A stretch of 64,000 nucleotides of DNA from an uncultured Bacilli bacterium. Its GTDB lineage: Bacteria > Bacillota_I > Bacilli_A > RF39 > UBA660. Shown piece by piece: positions 14,833 to 47,254 of this stretch (the first letter of the stretch is position 1; every line of letters begins with the position of its first letter). The position numbers were made by a program, and so were the translations under genes. The stretch spans positions 351 to 64,350 of the forward strand of contig CANRPP010000003.1 of the NCBI GenBank assembly GCA_947632545.1, in the 5' to 3' direction. Under the pieces are notes generated by a model, which made no database searches, was not told the origin of the DNA, and saw only the letters and a list, made by a program, of their open reading frames with translations.

Positions 14833-15735
14833 TTATTTATTTAAATTCATTATTTCTAATATTCTATTTAAATCATTTGAATTTGCAAAAGATATTTCTA
14901 ATTTTGTATTCTTTACTTTTACTTTTGTTCCTAATTTTTCTGATAATTCATCTTCTAAATAATCATATTCATGATTTTTTTCTTGTTTAGTTCTTACTAT
15001 TTTATTTTTTCTTTCAAATTTATCACTACTGGAAGTTATTTCTTCTAATTGTCTAACACTTAATCCTTCTGTTATTATTTTGTTTGCTAAAGTGTTTATT
15101 TGATTTTCATCTTCTAATTTACTTAATACTCTAGCATGTCCCATTGATATTTGTTTATTACTTATTAAATCTTGTGTTTTTTGTGGAAGTGTTAATAATC
15201 CTATCATATTAGTAATGTGACTTCTACTTTTACCAAGACGTTCTGCTAACTGCTCTTGTGTTAAACCCAAATTATTTAGTAATTGTTTATATGCGGTAGC
15301 TTCTTCAATAGAATTTAGGTTTTCTCTTTGTAAATTTTCAAGTAGAGCAATCTCCATCATTTCATTATCTGTAAACTCTCTAACTATAGCTGGTATTTCT
15401 GTTAATCCTGCTATTTTAGAGGCTTTAACTCTTCTTTCACCGGCAATTATTTCATAGCCTTTTATGCTCTTTTTTATTATTATTGGTTGAAATACGCCAT
15501 GTTCTTTAATTGATGCAGCAAGTTCTTCTAATGCTGTTTGATCAAATACTTGTCTTGGTTGATATGGATTACTTCTTAATTCATTTAAGGGAACTTTTAT
15601 TATTTGTTCTTTTGGTGTTTCTGTAATAATCCTTTCTTCTATTTTATTATAGTCAAGAGGTTCATTATTAAATAATTCTTCTAAACCTCTACCTAAAGCT
15701 TTTCTTCTAATATTATTATTCTCCATTTCTTTCAA
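14833..15735 (-). CDS. spo0J: chromosome partitioning protein ParB/Spo0J
   Basis: 300 aa. Has LGRGLEELF, the GERRVKAS CTP-binding box and the HTH LTQEQLAERLGKSRSHITNMIGLLTLP...MGHAR (ParB-type residues). It lies downstream of soj. Confidence 0.9.
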   Translation of the reverse strand: MKEMENNNIRRKALGRGLEELFNNEPLDYNKIEERIITETPKEQIIKVPLNELRSNPYQPRQVFDQTALEELAASIKEHGVFQPIIIKKSIKGYEIIAGERRVKASKIAGLTEIPAIVREFTDNEMMEIALLENLQRENLNSIEEATAYKQLLNNLGLTQEQLAERLGKSRSHITNMIGLLTLPQKTQDLISNKQISMGHARVLSKLEDENQINTLANKIITEGLSVRQLEEITSSSDKFERKNKIVRTKQEKNHEYDYLEDELSEKLGTKVKVKNTKLEISFANSNDLNRILEIMNLNK

Positions 15736-16501
15736 TCACTTCCTTTGCTAAATTCATATATGCTTCAGATCCTCTACTTTTTGGATCATATGCTATTATT
15801 GGTTCACCATGAGAAGGTGCTTCAGTTAATCTTATTAGTCTTGGTATAATTGTATTATAAACTTTTTCTTTAAAGAATTTTCTTATATCATCAACTACTT
15901 CAAAACCTAAATTAGTTCTAGAATCTAACATAGTTAGTAGTACCCCCTCTATTTCTAAATTAGGGTTAAGTGTTTTTTGTGCTAACATAATTGTATTTAA
16001 AAGTTGTAATATTCCTTCTAGAGCGAAAAATTCACATTGTACTGGAATAATTACTGAGTTTGATGCTGATAAAGCATTTGTTGTGATCATTCCTAATGAT
16101 GGTGGACAATCAATTATTATATAATCATAATTTTCTTTTATTGTTTCTAAATGATTTTTTAACTGACTTCCTTTTGCAAAACCTGGATCATTTTGACTTT
16201 TTTCTATTAATTCAATATCTAACCCTGCTAAATTTATAGTAGATGGAATAACATATAAACCTTTATATTTAGTTTTTACAATAGTTTCTTCGATACTACA
16301 TTTTCCTATAAAAACATCATAAATACTATTTTCTATATCTCCTTTTGTTATTCCTACTCCTGTTGAAGTATTTCCTTGAGGATCTAAATCTATTAATAAT
16401 ACTTGTTTATCTAATGCTGCGAGTGATGCAGAAAGATTAATACTTGTCGTTGTTTTTCCTACTCCACCTTTTTGATTTACTAAAGAAATTATCTTTCCCA
16501 T
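15716..16501 (-). CDS. soj: chromosome partitioning ATPase ParA/Soj
   Basis: 261 aa with the deviant Walker A motif NQKGGVGKTTT and IIDCPPSLG. Confidence 0.92.
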   Translation of the reverse strand: MGKIISLVNQKGGVGKTTTSINLSASLAALDKQVLLIDLDPQGNTSTGVGITKGDIENSIYDVFIGKCSIEETIVKTKYKGLYVIPSTINLAGLDIELIEKSQNDPGFAKGSQLKNHLETIKENYDYIIIDCPPSLGMITTNALSASNSVIIPVQCEFFALEGILQLLNTIMLAQKTLNPNLEIEGVLLTMLDSRTNLGFEVVDDIRKFFKEKVYNTIIPRLIRLTEAPSHGEPIIAYDPKSRGSEAYMNLAKEVIERNGE

Positions 16502-24074: not shown

Positions 24075-24125
24075 ATATTACCTCTATTTAAAAATCTAAA
24101 AAAACCACAGTATAAAACTTGTGGA

Positions 24126-24248
24126 TTAATTACATAGTTTTTTACGTCCTTTACGACGACGATTATTTAAAATATTAGTTAGTTTACGAGCAAAGAAACC
24201 ATGCTTTTTAGCTTTTTTACGATTATTTGGTTGATAAGTTCTTTTCAT
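24126..24248 (-). CDS. rpmH: 50S ribosomal protein L34
   Basis: Not in the ORF track (40 aa). The minus strand reads [40 protein letters not shown], with SD GGAGGTGG upstream. A CCACA/TGTGG hairpin plus T-run lies just downstream. Confidence 0.85.
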
Positions 24249-24349
24249 TATTCCACCTCCAGACATAAATCTACATTATTATAATAATAAAATATGGTTT
24301 TTGTCAATTAAATATGGATAATTTTTTATATCAACATTATTAACAACTA

Positions 24350-24468
24350 TGTGGAAAAGAAAAATAACAGTTGTTAAAGAAAATTTGTGGAAAATGTGGA
24401 AAACTTATTTTTTTAGTTTTATTTTAACAAATAATATGTGGAAAATTTTGTTAATTATTTGTGGATAT
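24350..24468. other. oriC upstream DnaA-box cluster (rpmH-dnaA spacer)
   Basis: Five co-oriented boxes. TGTGGAAAA occurs at 24350-58, 24386-94, 24395-03 and 24437-45; TGTGGATAT occurs at 24460-68. Each has 1-2 mismatches to TGTGGATAA. Confidence 0.75.
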
Positions 24469-24552
24469 CATAAATTGTTTTTTTTTAGTTTATTTTTTCG
24501 ACAATTTAATGTAGAATAGAATTAATTACTTATCTTGTGGGGAGATGGTTGT

Positions 24553-25947
24553 ATGAATGTTGATATAATGTGGAACAATTTCCTAAAGCAAATTAAACCT
24601 GATTTATCATCTCTTGCTTTTGATACATGGTTTAGTGATACTAAATTATATGAATTAAAAGATGGTAAAGCTTTTATAATTGTTCCCATGCAAATTCATA
24701 AAAAACATTTAGCAGATAAATATTCTTCTTTAATAATTGAAAAATTAAATAATATTACTGGTACAAATTTTGAATTAGAATTTTTATTAGAAAATGAATT
24801 AGTTAAAGAAAAAAAGTCTGAAAATAAGGAAAATTCTAATATTATACAAGAAAATAGTAGTGGAGTACCTCCTAATTTATTTAATTCTAATTTAAAGAGT
24901 AAATATAGTTTTGAAAATTTTATTGTAGGTAATTCAAATAAATTTGCCCATGCTGCTGCTTTATCAGTAGCGGAAAATCCTGGTAAGATGTATAATCCTT
25001 TATTTATTTACGGAAATAGTGGTCTTGGAAAAACTCATTTAATGCACGCGATTGGAAACTATATAATAGAAAATAGTAATAGAAGAGTTTTATATGTTAC
25101 TAGTGATCAATTTATACAAGATTTTATTGGTATTAATAAGAAAGATGAAAAAGGAACAAACTTTAATTATATAGATTTCTTTAAAAATAAATATAGAAAT
25201 GTCGATGTTTTAATAATTGATGATATTCAGTTTTTAGGTGGCGCTACTCAAACACAACGTGAATTTTTTAATACTTTTACATCTTTATATGATGATAGTA
25301 AACAAATTATTATTTCTTCCGATAGATCACCAAATGACTTAAAATTATTAGAAGATCGTTTAAGAACAAGATTTTGTTGGGGACTAACGGTAAATATATA
25401 TCCACCTGATTTTTCCCTTAGAACTGAAATATTAAAGAAAAAAATTGCGGCTGGAAATTTTGAAAAAGAAATTCCTGAAGATGTAATTGAATATATAGCA
25501 TCTAATATTGGTACTGATGTTAGACAACTTGAAGGCTCCATAACTAGACTTGTTGCTTATTCTACAATAATGGGTGGAGTAGATATTAATCTAGATTTAG
25601 CAATTGAAGCTTTAAAAGATTTTATTAGTAAAGGAATATCTGAAAAAAATGATATTCATAGAATTCAAAAAATAGTTTCTGAATATTTTCAAATTACAGT
25701 TGAAGATATTAGAAGTAAAAAAAGAAGCTCTAACATTTCTTTTCCTAGACAAATAGCTATGTATTTATGTAGAAATATGACTAGTGAATCTTTTCCTAAA
25801 ATAGGAACAGAATTTGGTGGAAAAGATCATTCTACAGTAATGCATTCTGTTGAAAAAATAGAGCAAGAAATAAAAGTAAATAAAGATTTAGAAAAAATTA
25901 TTGAAAAATTAAAACAAGATATTGGAGAAGGAATTGTTAATAAATAA
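24553..25947 (+). CDS. dnaA: chromosomal replication initiator DnaA
   Basis: Start taken at MNVDIMWNNF (ATG at 24553, SD GGAGATGG) rather than the ORF-track TTG at 24535. Walker A GNSGLGKTHL, IDDIQF and the C-terminal DNA-binding block GGKDHSTVMHS. Confidence 0.96.
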   Translation: MNVDIMWNNFLKQIKPDLSSLAFDTWFSDTKLYELKDGKAFIIVPMQIHKKHLADKYSSLIIEKLNNITGTNFELEFLLENELVKEKKSENKENSNIIQENSSGVPPNLFNSNLKSKYSFENFIVGNSNKFAHAAALSVAENPGKMYNPLFIYGNSGLGKTHLMHAIGNYIIENSNRRVLYVTSDQFIQDFIGINKKDEKGTNFNYIDFFKNKYRNVDVLIIDDIQFLGGATQTQREFFNTFTSLYDDSKQIIISSDRSPNDLKLLEDRLRTRFCWGLTVNIYPPDFSLRTEILKKKIAAGNFEKEIPEDVIEYIASNIGTDVRQLEGSITRLVAYSTIMGGVDINLDLAIEALKDFISKGISEKNDIHRIQKIVSEYFQITVEDIRSKKRSSNISFPRQIAMYLCRNMTSESFPKIGTEFGGKDHSTVMHSVEKIEQEIKVNKDLEKIIEKLKQDIGEGIVNK

Positions 25948-25961
25948 AATAAATTACATAT

Positions 25962-26075
25962 TTTTCCACATACAAAAAATAAATTTTATGCTATTATAAT
26001 TAAAATTATTTTAATTATTAACATTTTCCACAGTAATAATATAAATAATATATTTAATAAAAAAGAAAGAAGGAA
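25962..26075. other. oriC downstream part (dnaA-dnaN spacer): DnaA boxes and AT-rich unwinding candidate
   Basis: TTTTCCACA occurs at 25962-70 and 26024-32, in the opposite orientation to the upstream cluster. The second box is followed by GTAATAATATAAATAATAT (TAA/TAT triplets resembling DnaA-trios) and pure A/T sequence. Confidence 0.55.
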
Positions 26076-27321: not shown

Positions 27322-27756
27322 ATGAATTATGAAATTAATGAAGGTACATTAGCAATTTTACCTTCAAAAAAACAAAGTAAGGTATTAGAAGATAAAGAAG
27401 AATATATCATTAATAGTACACCATTTGAAATAATGGATCATAGTTGTAAATATTTTGGTTCTTCCTATGAAGGAAGAAAGGAAGGTACAAAAGCAGTTTT
27501 AGATATTAATTATAAAGTACCTATTATTGTAGAAAATAGTAGAAATATTATATTCTTTCCTACAAATTCTCCTTCTGCAGAAGATTGTAGTTGGATTTCA
27601 TTAAAAAATATAAAAAAAATAGAAGAAGCAGAATATAATTCAACAACAATATTATTTAATAATGATATATCTATTTTAATACCTGTATCTAAAAGAACAA
27701 TAGAAAATCAAATTTTACGAGCATCTAGACTAGATTTAATTATGAGAGATAGATAA
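27322..27756 (+). CDS. ComK family protein (short, 144 aa)
   Basis: YEINEGTLAILP, PFEIMDHSCKYFGSSYEGRKEGT, VPIIVENSRNIIFFPTNSP..DCSWIS and ENQILRAS align block by block with B. subtilis ComK as recalled. SD AAGGGGG. Confidence 0.85.
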   Translation: MNYEINEGTLAILPSKKQSKVLEDKEEYIINSTPFEIMDHSCKYFGSSYEGRKEGTKAVLDINYKVPIIVENSRNIIFFPTNSPSAEDCSWISLKNIKKIEEAEYNSTTILFNNDISILIPVSKRTIENQILRASRLDLIMRDR

Positions 27757-30936: not shown

Positions 30937-33402
30937 ATGGATAGATTAGAACAAAATAATATAGTTAATGAAGTTAAAGATTCTTTTTTGGAATATTCAA
31001 TGAGTGTAATAGTTGCACGTGCCTTACCGGATTTAAGAGATGGATTAAAGCCAGTTCATAGACGTATTTTATATTCTATGTATGAATCAGGTTATACACC
31101 AGATAAACCTCATAAAAAGAGTGCTAGAATAGTAGGGGATGTAATGGGTAAATATCATCCTCATGGAGATTCTAGTATATATGAAGCAATGGTTAGAATG
31201 GCACAAGATTTTTCATATCGTAATATGTTAGTAGATGGTCATGGTAACTTTGGTAATATAGAAGGATATGGAGCAGCAGCAATGCGTTATACTGAATCAC
31301 GTCTTTCTAAAATTTCATTGCAATTATTAAGAGATATTAATAAAGATACAGTAGATTTTACTCCAAACTTCGATGAAAGTGAAAAAGAGCCTGTTATATT
31401 ACCTTCAAGATTTCCTAATATATTAGTAAATGGAACAATGGGAATTGCTGTTGGTATGGCTACTAATATACCACCACATAATTTAGGAGAGGTAATAGAT
31501 GGTTGTATTGCATATATTGATAATCCAGATATAGATTTAGATGGATTAATGCAATATATTAAAGGACCTGATTTTCCAACAGGAGCAACTATTTTAGGTA
31601 ATAGTGGTATTAGAAAAGCCTATGAAACAGGTAAAGGAACTATTACTATTAGAAGTAAAGCTAGGATAGAAGAAGAAAAAGGAAAGCACTATATAATTGT
31701 TGATGAAGTTCCATATGGAGTTAATACATTAGAATTAAAAAATAAAGTAGCGGATTTAGTACATAATAAAGTAATAGATGGAATAAGTGATTATCATACA
31801 GATTTAAAAGATGGAATAAAAATTACTATTACTTTAAAAAAAGATGCAAATCCACAAGTAGTATTAAATAATTTATATAAGCATACAGCTTTTCAAACAA
31901 GTTATGGTATAACATTTTTAATGCTTGATCAAGGAGTACCTAAAACTTTAGGATTAAAAGATATAATATCAAAATATATTGATTATCAAAAAGAAATAAT
32001 AATAAGGAGAACAAGATTTGATTTAAATAAAGATGAAGCACGAGCACATATTTTAGAAGGGTTAAAAATAGCATTAGATCACATTGATGAAATTATTAAA
32101 TTAATAAGAGGCTCTAAAAGTGATGAAATTGCAATGAATGGTTTAATGTCAAATTATTCATTAACTGAAAAACAAGCTCAAGCAATTCTTGAAATGAAAT
32201 TAAGAAGATTAACTGGATTAGAAAGAGATAAAATTGAGAATGAATTAAAAGAATTATTAGAAGAAATTGAAAAATTAAAAGGTATTTTAGCAAGTGAAGC
32301 TAAAGTATTAGAAATAATAAAAGAAGAAATGTTTGAAATAAAAGCAAAATTTGCTGATGAGAGACGTACAAATATTGATATGACTGCTATTGAATATATT
32401 GAAGATGAATCTCTAATACCTGTTGAAGATATAATAATAACTCTAACAAATAAAGGCTATATTAAACGTTTAAAATCAGACACTTATAGATCTCAAAATA
32501 GAGGTGGTGTTGGTATTAAAGGTATGACAACTAATGAAGAAGATATAGTAGAACACTTGTTATCAACAAAAACACATGATTATATATTATTCTTCTCTAA
32601 TAAGGGTAGAGTTTATAGATTAAAAGGTTATGAAATACCAGAATTTGGCAGACAATCTAAAGGTTTACCAATTGTAAATTTACTATCTCTTGATAAAGAT
32701 GAAAACATACGTTCTATAATATCTGTTGATGGCAAAGAAGAAAATTCTAAATATTTATTATTTACAACTAAAAAAGGACTTGTAAAAAGAACAGAAATTA
32801 AAGAATTTGATAGTATTAGAAAAGGTGGAAAAATAGCTATTCTTCTAAAAGAAGAAGATGAATTAATTTCTGTTAAAAAGACTAGCGGACAAGATGAAAT
32901 AGTAATTGGTGCAAATAATGGTAGAATGGTTAGATTTATAGAAACTGAAATAAGATCTATGGGTAGAAATACTTCAGGAGTAAAAGGAATAGATTTAGGA
33001 GATGCTATAGTAGTTGGAAGTGAAGTATTACAACCAGACCAATTAATATTAATAGTTACTGAAAAAGGTTATGGTAAACAATCACCAATTGAAGAATATA
33101 GATTGACTCATAGAGGAAGTAAAGGTGTTAAAGCACTAAATATAACAGAAAAAAATGGAATGATGGTAGCATTAAAATGTGTGGATAAAAATAAAATAGA
33201 ATCAAATGATATAATGATTATAACTGATAGTGGAATAATTATGAGAATGCCTTTATCACAAATTTCTATTTTAAAAAGAGCAACACAAGGAGTTAGGTTA
33301 ATTAATTTAAAAGAAAAACAAACAGTATCTACAATAGCAATTGTAGAAAAAGAAGATATTGAGGAAGATGAACCAACTGAAATACCTGAAAATGTAGCAT
33401 AA
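30937..33402 (+). CDS. gyrA: DNA gyrase subunit A
   Basis: 821 aa with [36 protein letters not shown] and the active-site tyrosine block [10 protein letters not shown]. Confidence 0.97.
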
Positions 33403-33417: not shown

Positions 33418-33425
33418 ATAAAAAT

Positions 33426-33439
33426 ATTTCCCGGGAAAT
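33426..33439. promoter_or_regulatory. Noc-binding site (NBS), perfect palindrome ATTTCCCGGGAAAT
   Basis: Exact match to the 14-bp B. subtilis NBS consensus. It extends to the 16-bp palindrome TATTTCCCGGGAAATA (33425-33440). Confidence 0.75.
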
Positions 33440-33450
33440 AAAAAAAGTAA

Positions 33451-33466
33451 TGTTTCACGTGAAACA
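33451..33466. promoter_or_regulatory. parS: parS centromere-like site 1, TGTTTCACGTGAAACA
   Basis: Perfect 16-bp palindrome that fits the Firmicute parS consensus TGTTNCACGTGAAACA at every position. It extends to 18 bp as ATGTTTCACGTGAAACAT. Confidence 0.87.
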
Positions 33467-33487
33467 TAGATAAGTTAATTTTAATAA

Positions 33488-33503
33488 TGTTTCACGTGAA
33501 ACA
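33488..33503. promoter_or_regulatory. parS: parS centromere-like site 2, TGTTTCACGTGAAACA
   Basis: Second identical copy. The 21 nt TAATGTTTCACGTGAAACATA are shared with site 1. The centres are 37 bp apart. Confidence 0.87.
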
Positions 33504-33555
33504 TACACTAAAATTAAAAAACTTGTATTTTTAATAATAATATAATACAATAAAT

Positions 33556-33630
33556 ACGTGCAATAAGTGCATTGGAACCAAGTCAGAATCGGAAGATAGC
33601 AGCTTTAACAATCAACACTTATGTGCACTT
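33556..33630 (+). ncRNA. ffs: signal recognition particle RNA, short (4.5S-like) form
   Basis: CCAAGUCAGAAUC-GGAA-GAUAGCAGC matches the universal SRP domain IV (CCAGGUCAGGUCC-GGAA-GGAAGCAGCC in E. coli 4.5S). It is closed by a 12-bp terminal stem GUGCAAUAAGUG/CACUUAU(G)UGCAC. TATAAT lies at 33541-46 and a T-run follows the 3' arm. The scr gene sits next to tadA/dnaX in Bacillus too. The exact ends are approximate. Confidence 0.75.
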
Positions 33631-33650
33631 TTATTTTTGGAGTGAATTAA

Positions 33651-34129: not shown

Positions 34130-35782
34130 ATGTATCAAGCTTTATATAGAAAATATAGACCAAAGAGTTTTGATGATGTAGTAGGACAAGATTTTGTTGT
34201 AAAAACATTAAAAAATTCAATAATAAATAATAAAATTAGTCATGCATATATGTTTTTTGGCCCTAGAGGTATTGGAAAAACAACAATTGCTAAAATATTA
34301 TCTAGGTCTGTTAATTGTGAAAATCCTCAAGACGGAAATGCTTGTGGAAAATGTAATAGTTGCTTAAAATCTATAAATAGTGTTGATATCATTGAAATTG
34401 ATGCTGCTTCAAATAATGGTGTTGATGAAATAAGAGAAATAAAAAGCAAAGTTAATATTGTACCTAGTGAACTTAAATATAAAGTTTATATAATAGATGA
34501 AGTTCATATGTTAACATCGGGTGCATTTAACGCATTATTAAAAACTTTAGAAGAACCACCAAGTCATGTTATTTTTATATTAGCAACAACAGATCCTCAA
34601 AAAGTATCAGATACAATTATTTCAAGATGCCAATGCTATTCATTTAAAAGAATTAGCGTTGAAAATATTATTTCAAAATTATCATATGTATGTAAAAAAG
34701 AAAACATAATGATAGATACTGCTGTTTTACAGTTAATTGCGGAACATTCTGACGGAGGATTACGAGATTCATTGGGTGTATTAGATAAATTATCATCTTA
34801 TAAAATGGATAAAATAACCATTGAAGATTATTATGAAATTAATGATATGATTACAGAAAAAGAATTAAATGAATTTAAAAATAGTATTTTATTATTAGAT
34901 AATAAAACAATCATCGATAAAATAAAAAAATATAGTGATAGTGGAAAAAATTTAATTGAAATTATAAAACAACTATTGATATCGTTACGTGATGATATAA
35001 TTAATTATTATATAAATGATAATAAAAATAATATAAATATTACTGAATATCAAAAATTAACAAATATAATAAACGAAAATATGTTTGATATTAAAAAAAG
35101 TGGAAATCCCAGAATTTATATAGAAATAATGTTGTTAAATTATATAAATAATTCAAAAATTATTTCCCAGGAAATAAATAAAAGCGAAAATCCTATAAAA
35201 AATGAGAAAAATGATAGTAAAATAGAAAATATAGTAAAAAAAGAAGTAAAAAAAGAAAAAATAAAAGAAGATAATAGTGATAAGGAAAAAGAAGATTCAT
35301 TAATTAATAATTCAAATTTATTAGAAATAAACGATATTAGAATTAATAATGTTTTGGCAAAAGCAGATAAAAAAGAAAAAATTAAAAATTTATCACTAAT
35401 TGACTCATTAAATGAATATGTTTTTGATCAAAAAATAGGATATATCATTTCAGAAATTTTAAATGCTACTTTAGAGGCTGCCAGTAATGATGCTTTAATT
35501 TTGAGTTATGAATATGAGTCAGTTGTTGATACTAATTTAAATAATTTAGAAAAATTAACTAAAGTGTTTAATGAAAAGACTGATTCTAACAAAAAACTAG
35601 CAATTGTTAGTAAAGCAAAATGGGATAAAGTAAAAAAAGAATACATTAATAATACTAAAAATGGCAAAAAGTATGATATTATAGAAGAGCCTGATCTAGT
35701 TATTAAAAAAAGTCAGGAAAATAAATCAAAAAATGCAGAAAATGCTTTAGATTTATTTAAAGATATAGTGGAAATAAAATAG
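34130..35782 (+). CDS. dnaX: DNA polymerase III subunit gamma/tau
   Basis: 550 aa with YRKYRP..F.DVVGQ, Walker A GPRGIGKTT, the zinc module CGKCNSC, IIDEVHML and SRCQ. Confidence 0.95.
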   Translation: MYQALYRKYRPKSFDDVVGQDFVVKTLKNSIINNKISHAYMFFGPRGIGKTTIAKILSRSVNCENPQDGNACGKCNSCLKSINSVDIIEIDAASNNGVDEIREIKSKVNIVPSELKYKVYIIDEVHMLTSGAFNALLKTLEEPPSHVIFILATTDPQKVSDTIISRCQCYSFKRISVENIISKLSYVCKKENIMIDTAVLQLIAEHSDGGLRDSLGVLDKLSSYKMDKITIEDYYEINDMITEKELNEFKNSILLLDNKTIIDKIKKYSDSGKNLIEIIKQLLISLRDDIINYYINDNKNNINITEYQKLTNIINENMFDIKKSGNPRIYIEIMLLNYINNSKIISQEINKSENPIKNEKNDSKIENIVKKEVKKEKIKEDNSDKEKEDSLINNSNLLEINDIRINNVLAKADKKEKIKNLSLIDSLNEYVFDQKIGYIISEILNATLEAASNDALILSYEYESVVDTNLNNLEKLTKVFNEKTDSNKKLAIVSKAKWDKVKKEYINNTKNGKKYDIIEEPDLVIKKSQENKSKNAENALDLFKDIVEIK

Positions 35783-45442: not shown

Positions 45443-45469
45443 AAAAATATATGATATTATAACTTCAGT

Positions 45470-45700
45470 TAGAGGTTGTGATAAAGAGTTTTATAAATGA
45501 ATTCTATTAAAGAGAGTCTAGATAGGTGGAACTAGATATAGAATATTTATAAAATATGGCTTTTGAACCATTATATCGATATGTAGGTATAATCGTATAT
45601 AGGCGTTAACTATTTAAGTGTATAATTAATATTATAAATTAAGGTGGTACCGCGAGAAAACTCGTCCTTATGTTTATAATGTTTTTTTATTTTTTAAATA
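45470..45700 (+). promoter_or_regulatory. T-box leader (probable Met specifier) controlling metG
   Basis: AGAGAG at 45511-16, GGTGGAA at 45525-31, candidate specifier AUG at 45556-58, GCGTTA at 45603-08, and the T-box core AAGG-TGGTACC-GCGAGAAAACTCG-TCCTT at 45641-69. T-runs follow at 45682-45695. Confidence 0.8.
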
Positions 45701-45733: not shown

Positions 45734-47254
45734 ATGAAAGAAAAATTTTATATTTCAACTGCAATTGCATATACATCTGGTAAACCTCATATAGGAAATA
45801 CATATGAAATAGTTTTAGCGGATGCTATTGCTAGATATAAAAGGTTAAAAAACTATGATGTATATTTTCAAACAGGTACAGATGAGCATGGAGAAAAAAT
45901 AGAAATAAAAGCAAAAGAAGCAGGAATTAGTCCAAAAGAGTATGTAGATGAAGTATCAGGTGAAATAAAAAGAATATGGGACTTAATGAATACAAGTTAT
46001 GATAGATTTGTAAGAACAACTGATACTAAACATGAAAAAATAGTTCAGCATATATTTAAAAAAATGTATGATAAAGGAGATATTTATAAAGGAGAATATA
46101 GAGGACTATATTGTACACCTTGTGAGTCTTTTTGGACTGAAGCACAGCTAGTTAATGGTAAATGTCCAGATTGTGGTAGAGATGTTGCCGAAGCTAGTGA
46201 AGAAGCATATTTCTTTAGATTATCTAAGTATCAAAAACAATTAGAAGAATATATAGAAAGTCATCCAGAATTTATTCAACCGGTTGCACGTAAAAATGAA
46301 ATGTTAAACAATTTTATAAAACCAGGACTACAAGATTTATGTGTTTCACGTACTTCATTTGATTGGGGAATACCAGTAGATTTTGATCAAAAACATGTAG
46401 TTTATGTTTGGCTTGATGCCTTAACTAATTATATTACTAATATTGGTTATGATGTTGATGAAACAACAGATGAATTTAAAAAATATTGGCCTGCTGATTT
46501 GCATTTAATAGGAAAAGATATAATTAGATTTCATACTATATATTGGCCATGTTTCTTATTTTCTTTAGGTTTAGATTTGCCTAAAAAAGTGTTTGGTCAT
46601 CCATGGCTTTTAATGAATAATGATAAAATGAGTAAAAGTAAAGGAAATGTCATATATGCGGATTCTTTAGTAGAAGAATTTGGTGTAGATGCTGTTAGAT
46701 ATTATCTTTTACATGAAATACCATTTTCAAGTGATGGAAATATAACTCGCGATTTATTAATAGAGCGTATTAATAGTGATTTAGCTAATGTTTTAGGTAA
46801 TTTAGTTCAAAGAACAATTTCAATGGGAAATAAATATTTCAATGGTCATGTTACTAATAAAGAACAAAAAGAAGAACTAGATACAAATTTTATTACTATG
46901 ATTAATAATCTAGATAATGAAGTAGCAGAAAAAATGGATAAATTGGAAATAAATGCGTCTATTGATAAAATATTTGATGTATTAAGAAATAGTAATAAAT
47001 ATATTGATGAAACTACACCATGGATTTTAGCTAAAGACGAGGCAAAGAAGGATAGACTAGAAACAGTTTTATACAATTTACTAGAATCTATTAGAGTTTG
47101 CGCTATTTTATTAAAACCCTATTTACCAGATACTAGTATTGAAATATTAAAACAAATAAATACTTCAAATAATTCATTTAACTATATTGCTGATAATATA
47201 TATGATCTTAATAATCCAACCCCATTATTTAAAAGAATAGATTTAAAACATTAA
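45734..47254 (+). CDS. metG: methionine--tRNA ligase (short form without the C-terminal tRNA-binding domain)
   Basis: 506 aa with the HIGH-type PHIGNTYE, the zinc knuckles C.PC....C.DC and KMSKS. Confidence 0.95.
   Translation: MKEKFYISTAIAYTSGKPHIGNTYEIVLADAIARYKRLKNYDVYFQTGTDEHGEKIEIKAKEAGISPKEYVDEVSGEIKRIWDLMNTSYDRFVRTTDTKHEKIVQHIFKKMYDKGDIYKGEYRGLYCTPCESFWTEAQLVNGKCPDCGRDVAEASEEAYFFRLSKYQKQLEEYIESHPEFIQPVARKNEMLNNFIKPGLQDLCVSRTSFDWGIPVDFDQKHVVYVWLDALTNYITNIGYDVDETTDEFKKYWPADLHLIGKDIIRFHTIYWPCFLFSLGLDLPKKVFGHPWLLMNNDKMSKSKGNVIYADSLVEEFGVDAVRYYLLHEIPFSSDGNITRDLLIERINSDLANVLGNLVQRTISMGNKYFNGHVTNKEQKEELDTNFITMINNLDNEVAEKMDKLEINASIDKIFDVLRNSNKYIDETTPWILAKDEAKKDRLETVLYNLLESIRVCAILLKPYLPDTSIEILKQINTSNNSFNYIADNIYDLNNPTPLFKRIDLKH

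Follow-up and report, generated by a model that had tools for sequence, protein, structure and literature searches.

Co-located parS and Noc-binding sites downstream of gyrA in uncultured Bacilli: a likely origin-proximal loading zone for two ParB-family proteins

Introduction

Our understanding of the ParB paralogue Noc rests on Bacillus subtilis and Staphylococcus aureus, in which the Noc-binding sites (NBS) are dispersed and physically apart from the parS centromere. B. subtilis has about 70 NBS. In the model species, these are single sites spread across the half to two-thirds of the chromosome nearest the origin, with 41 loci in S. aureus, where Noc covers 8–10 kb around its sites (PMC5540599). 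The N-terminal amphipathic helix of Noc (alpha-1, alpha-2) is reported to be highly conserved in the homologues examined so far and to be indispensable for membrane attachment as well as for nucleoid occlusion (PMC4331003, PMC8429893).

Whether a protein reads parS or NBS is set by four positions, i.e. residues 173, 179, 184 and 201 of Caulobacter ParB (Jalal et al. 2020, PMC7383237). At these positions, ParB carries R-T-A-G and Noc carries Q-K-K-R, with Q173 reading the A at position 1 of the site and R201 the C at position 6. A single lysine at either 179 or 184 is permissive for NBS, and K179 alone is sufficient in the Caulobacter ParB background (PMC7383237).

Here, we describe a 64-kb stretch of DNA from an uncultured Bacilli bacterium (64,000 nucleotides, referred to as the window throughout), in which one NBS and two parS sites are packed into 80 bp. 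The original prediction for this stretch was that nucleation sites of ParB and Noc are juxtaposed close to oriC and may constitute a principal loading locus.

A compact site cluster between gyrA and ffs

The three sites (Table 1) occupy most of the 146-bp gap that separates the gyrA stop codon from ffs, the gene of the small SRP RNA. The NBS matches both ATTTCCCGGGAAAT and the 16-bp tATTTCCCGGGAAATa and carries the two bases that separate NBS from parS (A in position 1, C in position 6), and the two parS sites match the Firmicute consensus TGTTNCACGTGAAACA. The parS copies are identical over 21 nt (33448–33468 and 33485–33505), with centre-to-centre distances of 26 bp from NBS to parS-1 and 37 bp from parS-1 to parS-2. 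Everything that had been claimed about the coordinates, the perfect palindromy, the 21-nt identity and these distances was confirmed on the sequence, and so was the setting between gyrA and the SRP RNA gene, upstream of a TATAAT element (33541–33546). As the intergenic gap measures just 146 bp, the 26-bp spacing in the window is partly forced; the meaningful fact is the clade-wide co-location of both site types in one intergenic region rather than this particular distance.

Table 1. Positions in the window of the sites and genes discussed (. denotes strand-less features)
Feature	Position	Strand	Remarks
ParB/Spo0J, 300 aa	14833..15735	-	ParB_N, HTH_ParB and ParB_C domains; GERR CTP-binding motif; R-M-T-G
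soj/parA ATPase	15716..16501	-	
Noc orthologue, 525 aa	16599..18176	-	ParB_N, HTH_ParB; Q-K-S-R; ~270-aa disordered acidic linker; Noc-type C-terminal domain
Bipartite oriC (Firmicute/Bacillus type)	24120..26032	.	DnaA-box clusters on both sides of dnaA; GC-skew minimum
gyrA, upstream flank	30937..33402	+	Conserved synteny anchor
NBS TATTTCCCGGGAAATA	33425..33440	.	Perfect 16-bp match; perfect palindrome
parS-1 ATGTTTCACGTGAAACAT	33450..33467	.	Perfect palindrome; perfect 16-bp Firmicute parS within
parS-2 ATGTTTCACGTGAAACAT	33487..33504	.	Perfect palindrome; same as parS-1 over 21 nt
Putative ffs promoter	33514..33546	+	-35-like TTAAAA; -10 AATAAT or TATAAT; consensus matches only
SRP RNA gene, small (ffs), downstream flank	33549..33642	+	
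One-mismatch NBS TATTTCCCAGGAAATA	35161..35176	.	Within variable linker of dnaX; ISQEI version

With up to two mismatches allowed, the two perfect copies are the sole matches to the parS consensus in the 64 kb (shuffle mean of 0.05 matches; 0 of 100 shuffles reach the observed number). The NBS core is found at the same stringency in the cluster and as a one-mismatch copy in dnaX (35162–35175), compared to 0.08 matches in shuffles of the 64 kb. The claimed lack of further full sites thus stands at this threshold, the one-mismatch NBS in dnaX being the nearest to an exception, and a scan of the 64 kb at three mismatches added nothing but poor matches. Likewise, no parS or NBS lies around noc–soj–parB in the window, and the parB/spo0J gene was correctly noted to be devoid of an internal parS, a difference from the ParABS system of B. 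subtilis. TRF found zero tandem repeats in the cluster of the window, whose sites are single copies, unlike the tandem arrays of relatives described below.

The window has a G+C content of about 25%, and its GC skew reaches a minimum and switches sign near 24 kb. Clusters of DnaA-box-like sequences at 24120–24468 and 25962–26032 flank dnaA. Together, the skew and the boxes place the site cluster about 7–9 kb from oriC, which agrees with the predicted distance of ~9 kb. To the right of oriC, the genes run dnaA–dnaN–(144-aa ORF)–recF–gyrB–gyrA, followed by the site cluster and by ffs–tadA–dnaX–recR–holB–ricT–...–pth–mfd; to the left lie rnpA–yidC–jag–mnmE–mnmG–rsmG–noc-like–soj–parB.

Three further features of the window were recorded in passing. 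Its only perfect DnaA box (TTATCCACA, 33180–33188, minus strand) sits within gyrA at the 3′ end and precedes the NBS by ~240 bp, which may be a coincidence. The 144-aa ORF in the dnaN/recF interval (27322–27756, plus strand) has no NCBIfam match, while the dnaN-adjacent gene of one relative (L142, 1–102) has a Pfam match to ComK (PF06338), so the ORF of the window may be ComK-like, too. Finally, a T-box leader (45469–45672, plus strand, 111 bits) is found upstream of metG (45734–47254).

Conservation across relatives

A cross-genome scan for NBS and parS no more than 30 bp apart, using one genome per species for 185,579 species (GTDB), returned at least 120 matches. All 120 matches listed fall into the same syntenic region downstream of gyrA, adjoining ffs–tadA–dnaX, and nearly all of them into the gyrA–ffs/tadA gap itself. 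The NBS core seen in the window recurs in the corresponding gap of more than 120 related genomes. Scattering of the palindromes in the manner of a repeat family had been named as the outcome that would speak against a loading locus; among the matches listed, the opposite was seen. GyrA at the listed loci is 48–94% identical to that of the window. The matching genomes are all low-GC (23–37%) MAGs of uncultured gut bacteria that carry labels such as Bacilli, Mollicutes, Tenericutes, Erysipelotrichaceae, 'Clostridium sp. CAG:710/417/1000', Ca. Scybalousia and Ca. Onthousia—a clade that we take to be the GTDB order RF39. The same pattern had zero matches in 2.9 million viral contigs.

Several MAG records with the locus are labelled Muribaculaceae or Bacteroides helcogenes (L004, L005, L011, L023, L029, L039 and others), and NCBI places Ca. 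Scybalousia under Bacteroidales. NCBI lineage labels are unreliable for these MAGs, probably through mislabelling or through contamination of the bins. One of the loci (L089, 1,000,001–1,008,000) is part of CP091739.1, the complete 1.53-Mb chromosome of a clade member.

Because this first sample had been chosen for the juxtaposition itself, a second one was drawn from metagenomes by the GyrA C-terminal domain only. Among the low-GC relatives with downstream sequence, a parS cluster directly follows gyrA in 17/17 loci and also contains NBS in 11 of them, whereas three high-GC outgroups have neither a parS nor an NBS cluster after gyrA. In line with the prediction, the cluster is probably a principal loading locus. 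Of 17 related loci inspected for ffs, 16 contain the gene, mostly between the cluster and tadA. Some lineages (L130/131, L136/137) have clusters of parS only. On the other side of oriC, the 21-kb noc–soj–parB regions of three relatives contain no parS and no NBS. Because the loci share ancestors, all such counts across them suggest more independent observations than there are.

Anatomy of the clusters

Between lineages, the clusters range from 1 to >15 sites spread over 0.2–3.6 kb, and the order, copy number and spacing of the sites differ. A fixed architecture in which the NBS always comes first after gyrA can be rejected, given that the first site is a parS in 41 loci and an NBS in 38. With order, number and spacing all variable, no strict architecture seems to be required. 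Many lineages have regular tandem arrays in which a composite unit of one parS and one NBS is repeated, e.g. in L064 (75-bp unit, 8.8 copies), with periods of 64–112 bp in the arrays of L010, L007, L035, L095, L046 and L128. Such arrays are not confined to the gap next to gyrA: the one in L007 (900–1560) lies between tadA and dnaX and the one in L046 ~1.9 kb from ffs, while in L135 (2585–3158) ffs is flanked by sites to its left and right. Lineages have no more than the palindromic cores in common, their spacers being unrelated, which indicates that arrays have been rebuilt repeatedly with both cores retained. Judging from these sequence comparisons, both site types appear to be under ongoing selection.

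To what extent do the two site types remain distinct? Of the sites in 1.1 Mb of related loci that are built on the common scaffold, 537 were pure parS (G1/A6 in both halves) and 325 pure NBS (A1/C6 in both halves). Hybrids made up of one parS and one NBS half do not occur among the 862 sites, and intermediates at positions 1 and 6 are almost absent. Two discrete site classes are what two orthogonal homodimeric readers would predict, and the zero count of hybrid sites argues against ParB–Noc heterodimers as readers. The lack of hybrids is also evidence, from within natural genomes, for the switch of specificity at two positions known from mutagenesis.

The distances between neighbouring sites were compiled from 120 GTDB loci, 21 metagenome loci and the window (L001–L141). 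NBS–parS centre distances peak near 26, 36 and 46–48 bp, and the best period is ~10.75 bp (jitter-null p ~0.003, 130 non-redundant spacers). As the loci are phylogenetically related, this periodicity is only suggestive of a helical phasing of neighbouring NBS and parS.

NBS are not restricted to the intergenic cluster. A perfect NBS is present inside dnaX in 25/69 related loci, mostly in a poorly conserved linker, and in relatives NBS occasionally occur further downstream as well. The dnaX sites are read in two frames, as ISREI (21 sites) or YFPGN (4 sites), with 3 more between alignment segments; this use of two reading frames points to selection on the DNA rather than on the peptide. In one relative (L068, 5326–5435), the site is repeated in frame to give three copies in tandem, spaced at a period of 48 bp. 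Within the 64 kb of the window and the 8–21-kb loci of relatives, NBS are concentrated in the parS cluster and dnaX.

Two candidate readers with distinct predicted site specificity

The genome encodes both candidate readers in the order rsmG–noc–soj–parB, which is conserved in the relatives examined and matches the gene order of B. subtilis, with noc positioned as in Bacillus. Compared to solved structures, the 300-aa protein is closest to B. subtilis Spo0J (218 bits vs 161 bits for Noc) and is, by its sequence, a canonical ParB. For the 525-aa protein, the ranking is reversed, with Noc (7nfu) scoring best at 220 bits and ParB/Spo0J proteins reaching 167–181 bits.

At the four specificity positions, the two proteins differ in the manner expected for a parS reader and an NBS reader (Table 1). 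Position 184 of Noc-like proteins in the clade is S or A, rather than the K of characterised Noc. Following the published residue rules (PMC7383237), ParB of the window is predicted to be parS-specific and the Noc-like protein to be NBS-specific. The parS sites combine the consensus with an origin-proximal position and an encoded cognate ParB (residues of the R173/G201 type) next to Soj, and the NBS combines its consensus with a reader that has Q173, R201 and a permissive K. The predicted side-by-side position of ParB and Noc nucleation sites close to oriC is thus supported, both by readers with the discriminating residues and by the conservation of the locus.

A Noc orthologue with a long disordered linker

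The Noc-like protein shares with Noc its ParB-family N-terminal and HTH domains, the location of its gene downstream of rsmG and the closest solved structures, although NCBI annotates it just as a 'ParB/RepB/Spo0J family partition protein'. Its score against NCBIfam TIGR04285 (290 bits over residues 6–205) stays below the 315-bit cut-off; when scanned separately, the C-terminal 52 aa align to model positions 204–255 with a further 18.9 bits. The match to the family is hence split by a linker of ~270 aa.

In one respect, the protein departs from what had been assumed. Only 16 aa precede its PNRFQPR motif, and the reading frame is closed by a stop one codon ahead of the ATG, so the N-terminal amphipathic helix cannot be present. 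The earlier assumption of a canonical Noc was therefore not borne out: the orthologue of the window has no membrane-targeting helix and, for this reason, may not act in classical nucleoid occlusion. The best 120 homologues are all 430–540 aa long and share a short N-terminus—typically 16 aa ahead of PNRFQPR—as well as a conserved C-terminus, with the QK[S/A/T]R signature present in 119 of them. The short N-terminus suggests that the Noc orthologue of the clade may not be a nucleoid-occlusion factor.

The linker (about residues 203–479) is acidic and variable, with an AlphaFold2 pLDDT <50 for most of its length. Embedded in it are conserved islands, i.e. PLIPNF, YINFGEI, LDSLLRL, FKFFSPAxEAhK and DYFKAPDL, of which FKFFSPAxEAhK is found in 119/120 of the best homologues. 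This motif has an amphipathic character (hydrophobic moment of 0.45) and is partly helical in the AlphaFold2 model; whether that bears on membrane recruitment is only a lead. A likeness between SFKFFSP of the linker and SFSRFFG of the Noc N-terminus was considered as well, yet the spacing of the phenylalanines differs, leaving this, too, as a lead only.

Interpretation

We consider it likely that the 80-bp stretch represents, in minimal form, a loading zone that lies close to the origin throughout the clade and serves two orthogonal ParB-family clamps. Dimers of canonical ParB (Spo0J) would nucleate on the two parS sites and homodimers of the Noc orthologue on the NBS. Both proteins would then, in analogy to ParB and Noc of B. 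subtilis, close into CTP-dependent clamps and slide onto the shared flanking DNA, which could give rise to two orthogonal nucleoprotein complexes on one stretch of ~10–20 kb including oriC. The overlap of the complexes and their reach to oriC are suggested by the several-kb spreading of ParB and Noc in model species. Our best guess for the Noc-like protein is that it would mark or tether the origin region, or recruit partners via its linker motifs, in a role alongside ParB-driven segregation; classical chromosome-wide nucleoid occlusion is less likely.

A bolder proposal, which is possible although we regard it as doubtful, is that the Noc orthologue is a second centromere-binding CTP clamp instead of a nucleoid-occlusion factor. 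It would load from parS-interleaved sites, co-assemble with ParB on the origin region and employ its linker motifs to recruit partners or tether the origin. Such a protein could either be a repurposed Noc or reflect a near-ancestral state after ParB duplication, with NBS born from parS copies in an array.

The main rival to the loading zone is that the gyrA–ffs spacer merely acts as a safe harbour. Here, parS and NBS would each need proximity to oriC, and in a compact genome of ~1.5 Mb this spacer would be among the few tolerant intergenic spots. The two site types would then share it without any interplay, and the Noc-like protein would act genome-wide via dispersed NBS. The variable order, number and spacing of the sites, the lineages with parS only, the NBS in dnaX and occasionally farther downstream, and the forced proximity in the 146-bp gap of the window can all be accommodated in this way. 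Moreover, one NBS per 64 kb equals the average density in B. subtilis, and NBS loci like this cluster might therefore be numerous in the genome. However, the 64 kb contain many other intergenic regions and both site types are confined to a single one, just as the 21 kb across oriC in three relatives have zero sites of either type. Further points against a mere shared refuge are the joint amplification of composite units into regular arrays, which many lineages show although their spacers are unrelated, the helical phasing suggested by the NBS–parS spacing and the single locus shared by all 120 matches listed. We therefore judge an independent use of the spacer by the two systems to be unlikely.

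Much less probable still is that the palindromes are operators and serve ParB-family proteins in the local transcriptional control of ffs, tadA or dnaX. There is a precedent in KorB, a ParB-family protein acting as a transcriptional regulator. Such a role would agree with parS-2 ending ~10 bp before the -35-like element in the putative ffs promoter and with ffs, tadA and dnaX always being neighbours. Yet the position of the sites relative to promoters is not conserved (L007, L046, L135), their copy number varies from 1 to >15, and NBS also occur within the dnaX coding sequence.

A protein-independent repeat or hairpin family, be it a REP-like element or a gyrA terminator, is hardly credible: while the sites are perfect palindromes just past a stop codon, they exactly match two experimentally defined protein sites, their cores alone are conserved between lineages, and they are restricted to one locus among the matches listed and the 21-kb regions of three relatives. 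The terminator or hairpin reading in particular was rejected, as a search for terminator-like sites gave none and the palindromes all lack a T-run behind them.

If the sites indeed form a loading zone, the locus would offer a natural test case for two orthogonal ParB-family sliding clamps on one DNA track, which may act as roadblocks for each other, mix or cooperate. A Noc lineage without the membrane-targeting helix and with a motif-rich disordered linker further suggests that Noc has roles beyond nucleoid occlusion. On the practical side, the parS/NBS cluster is a useful origin marker for uncultured genomes of the clade.

Comparison with known systems

A literature search found no report of natural interleaved parS/NBS clusters or of a Noc lineage with this architecture, and nothing on Noc or a second ParB paralogue in Clostridioides difficile; subscription-only papers were outside its scope. 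The closest described system is that of Noc and NBS in B. subtilis and S. aureus, with which the clade shares an identical 14/16-bp NBS sequence and an orthologous reader encoded after rsmG, including residues of the Q173/K179/R201 type, the GERR and ENLQR CTP-binding motifs and the Noc-type C-terminal domain (PMC7383237, PMC8429893). What differs is that the NBS of the clade form clusters, intermingled with parS, at a single conserved locus, whereas those of the model species are dispersed, and that the Noc-like protein of the clade has a disordered linker inserted.

In common with chromosomal ParABS systems, the clade has canonical parS, ParB and Soj, an origin-proximal location and several parS copies. 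Unlike in those systems, sites for another, orthogonal ParB-family protein lie among its parS sites, and many relatives have regular tandem parS arrays. The latter bring to mind sopC of the F plasmid, which consists of tandem 43-bp units with one SopB site each. Both are built from a tandem unit that carries a palindromic site for a ParB-family protein, but the arrays of the clade are chromosomal, and each of their units has two different sites for two paralogues. Orthogonality of the two protein–site pairs within one cell is exploited in mParSpot two-colour labelling (PMC11109969), an engineered system with arrays at separate loci; those of the clade are interleaved by nature. While parS, NBS, ParB and Noc are thus all known, their natural interleaving at one clade-wide locus appears, from the literature searched, to be new.
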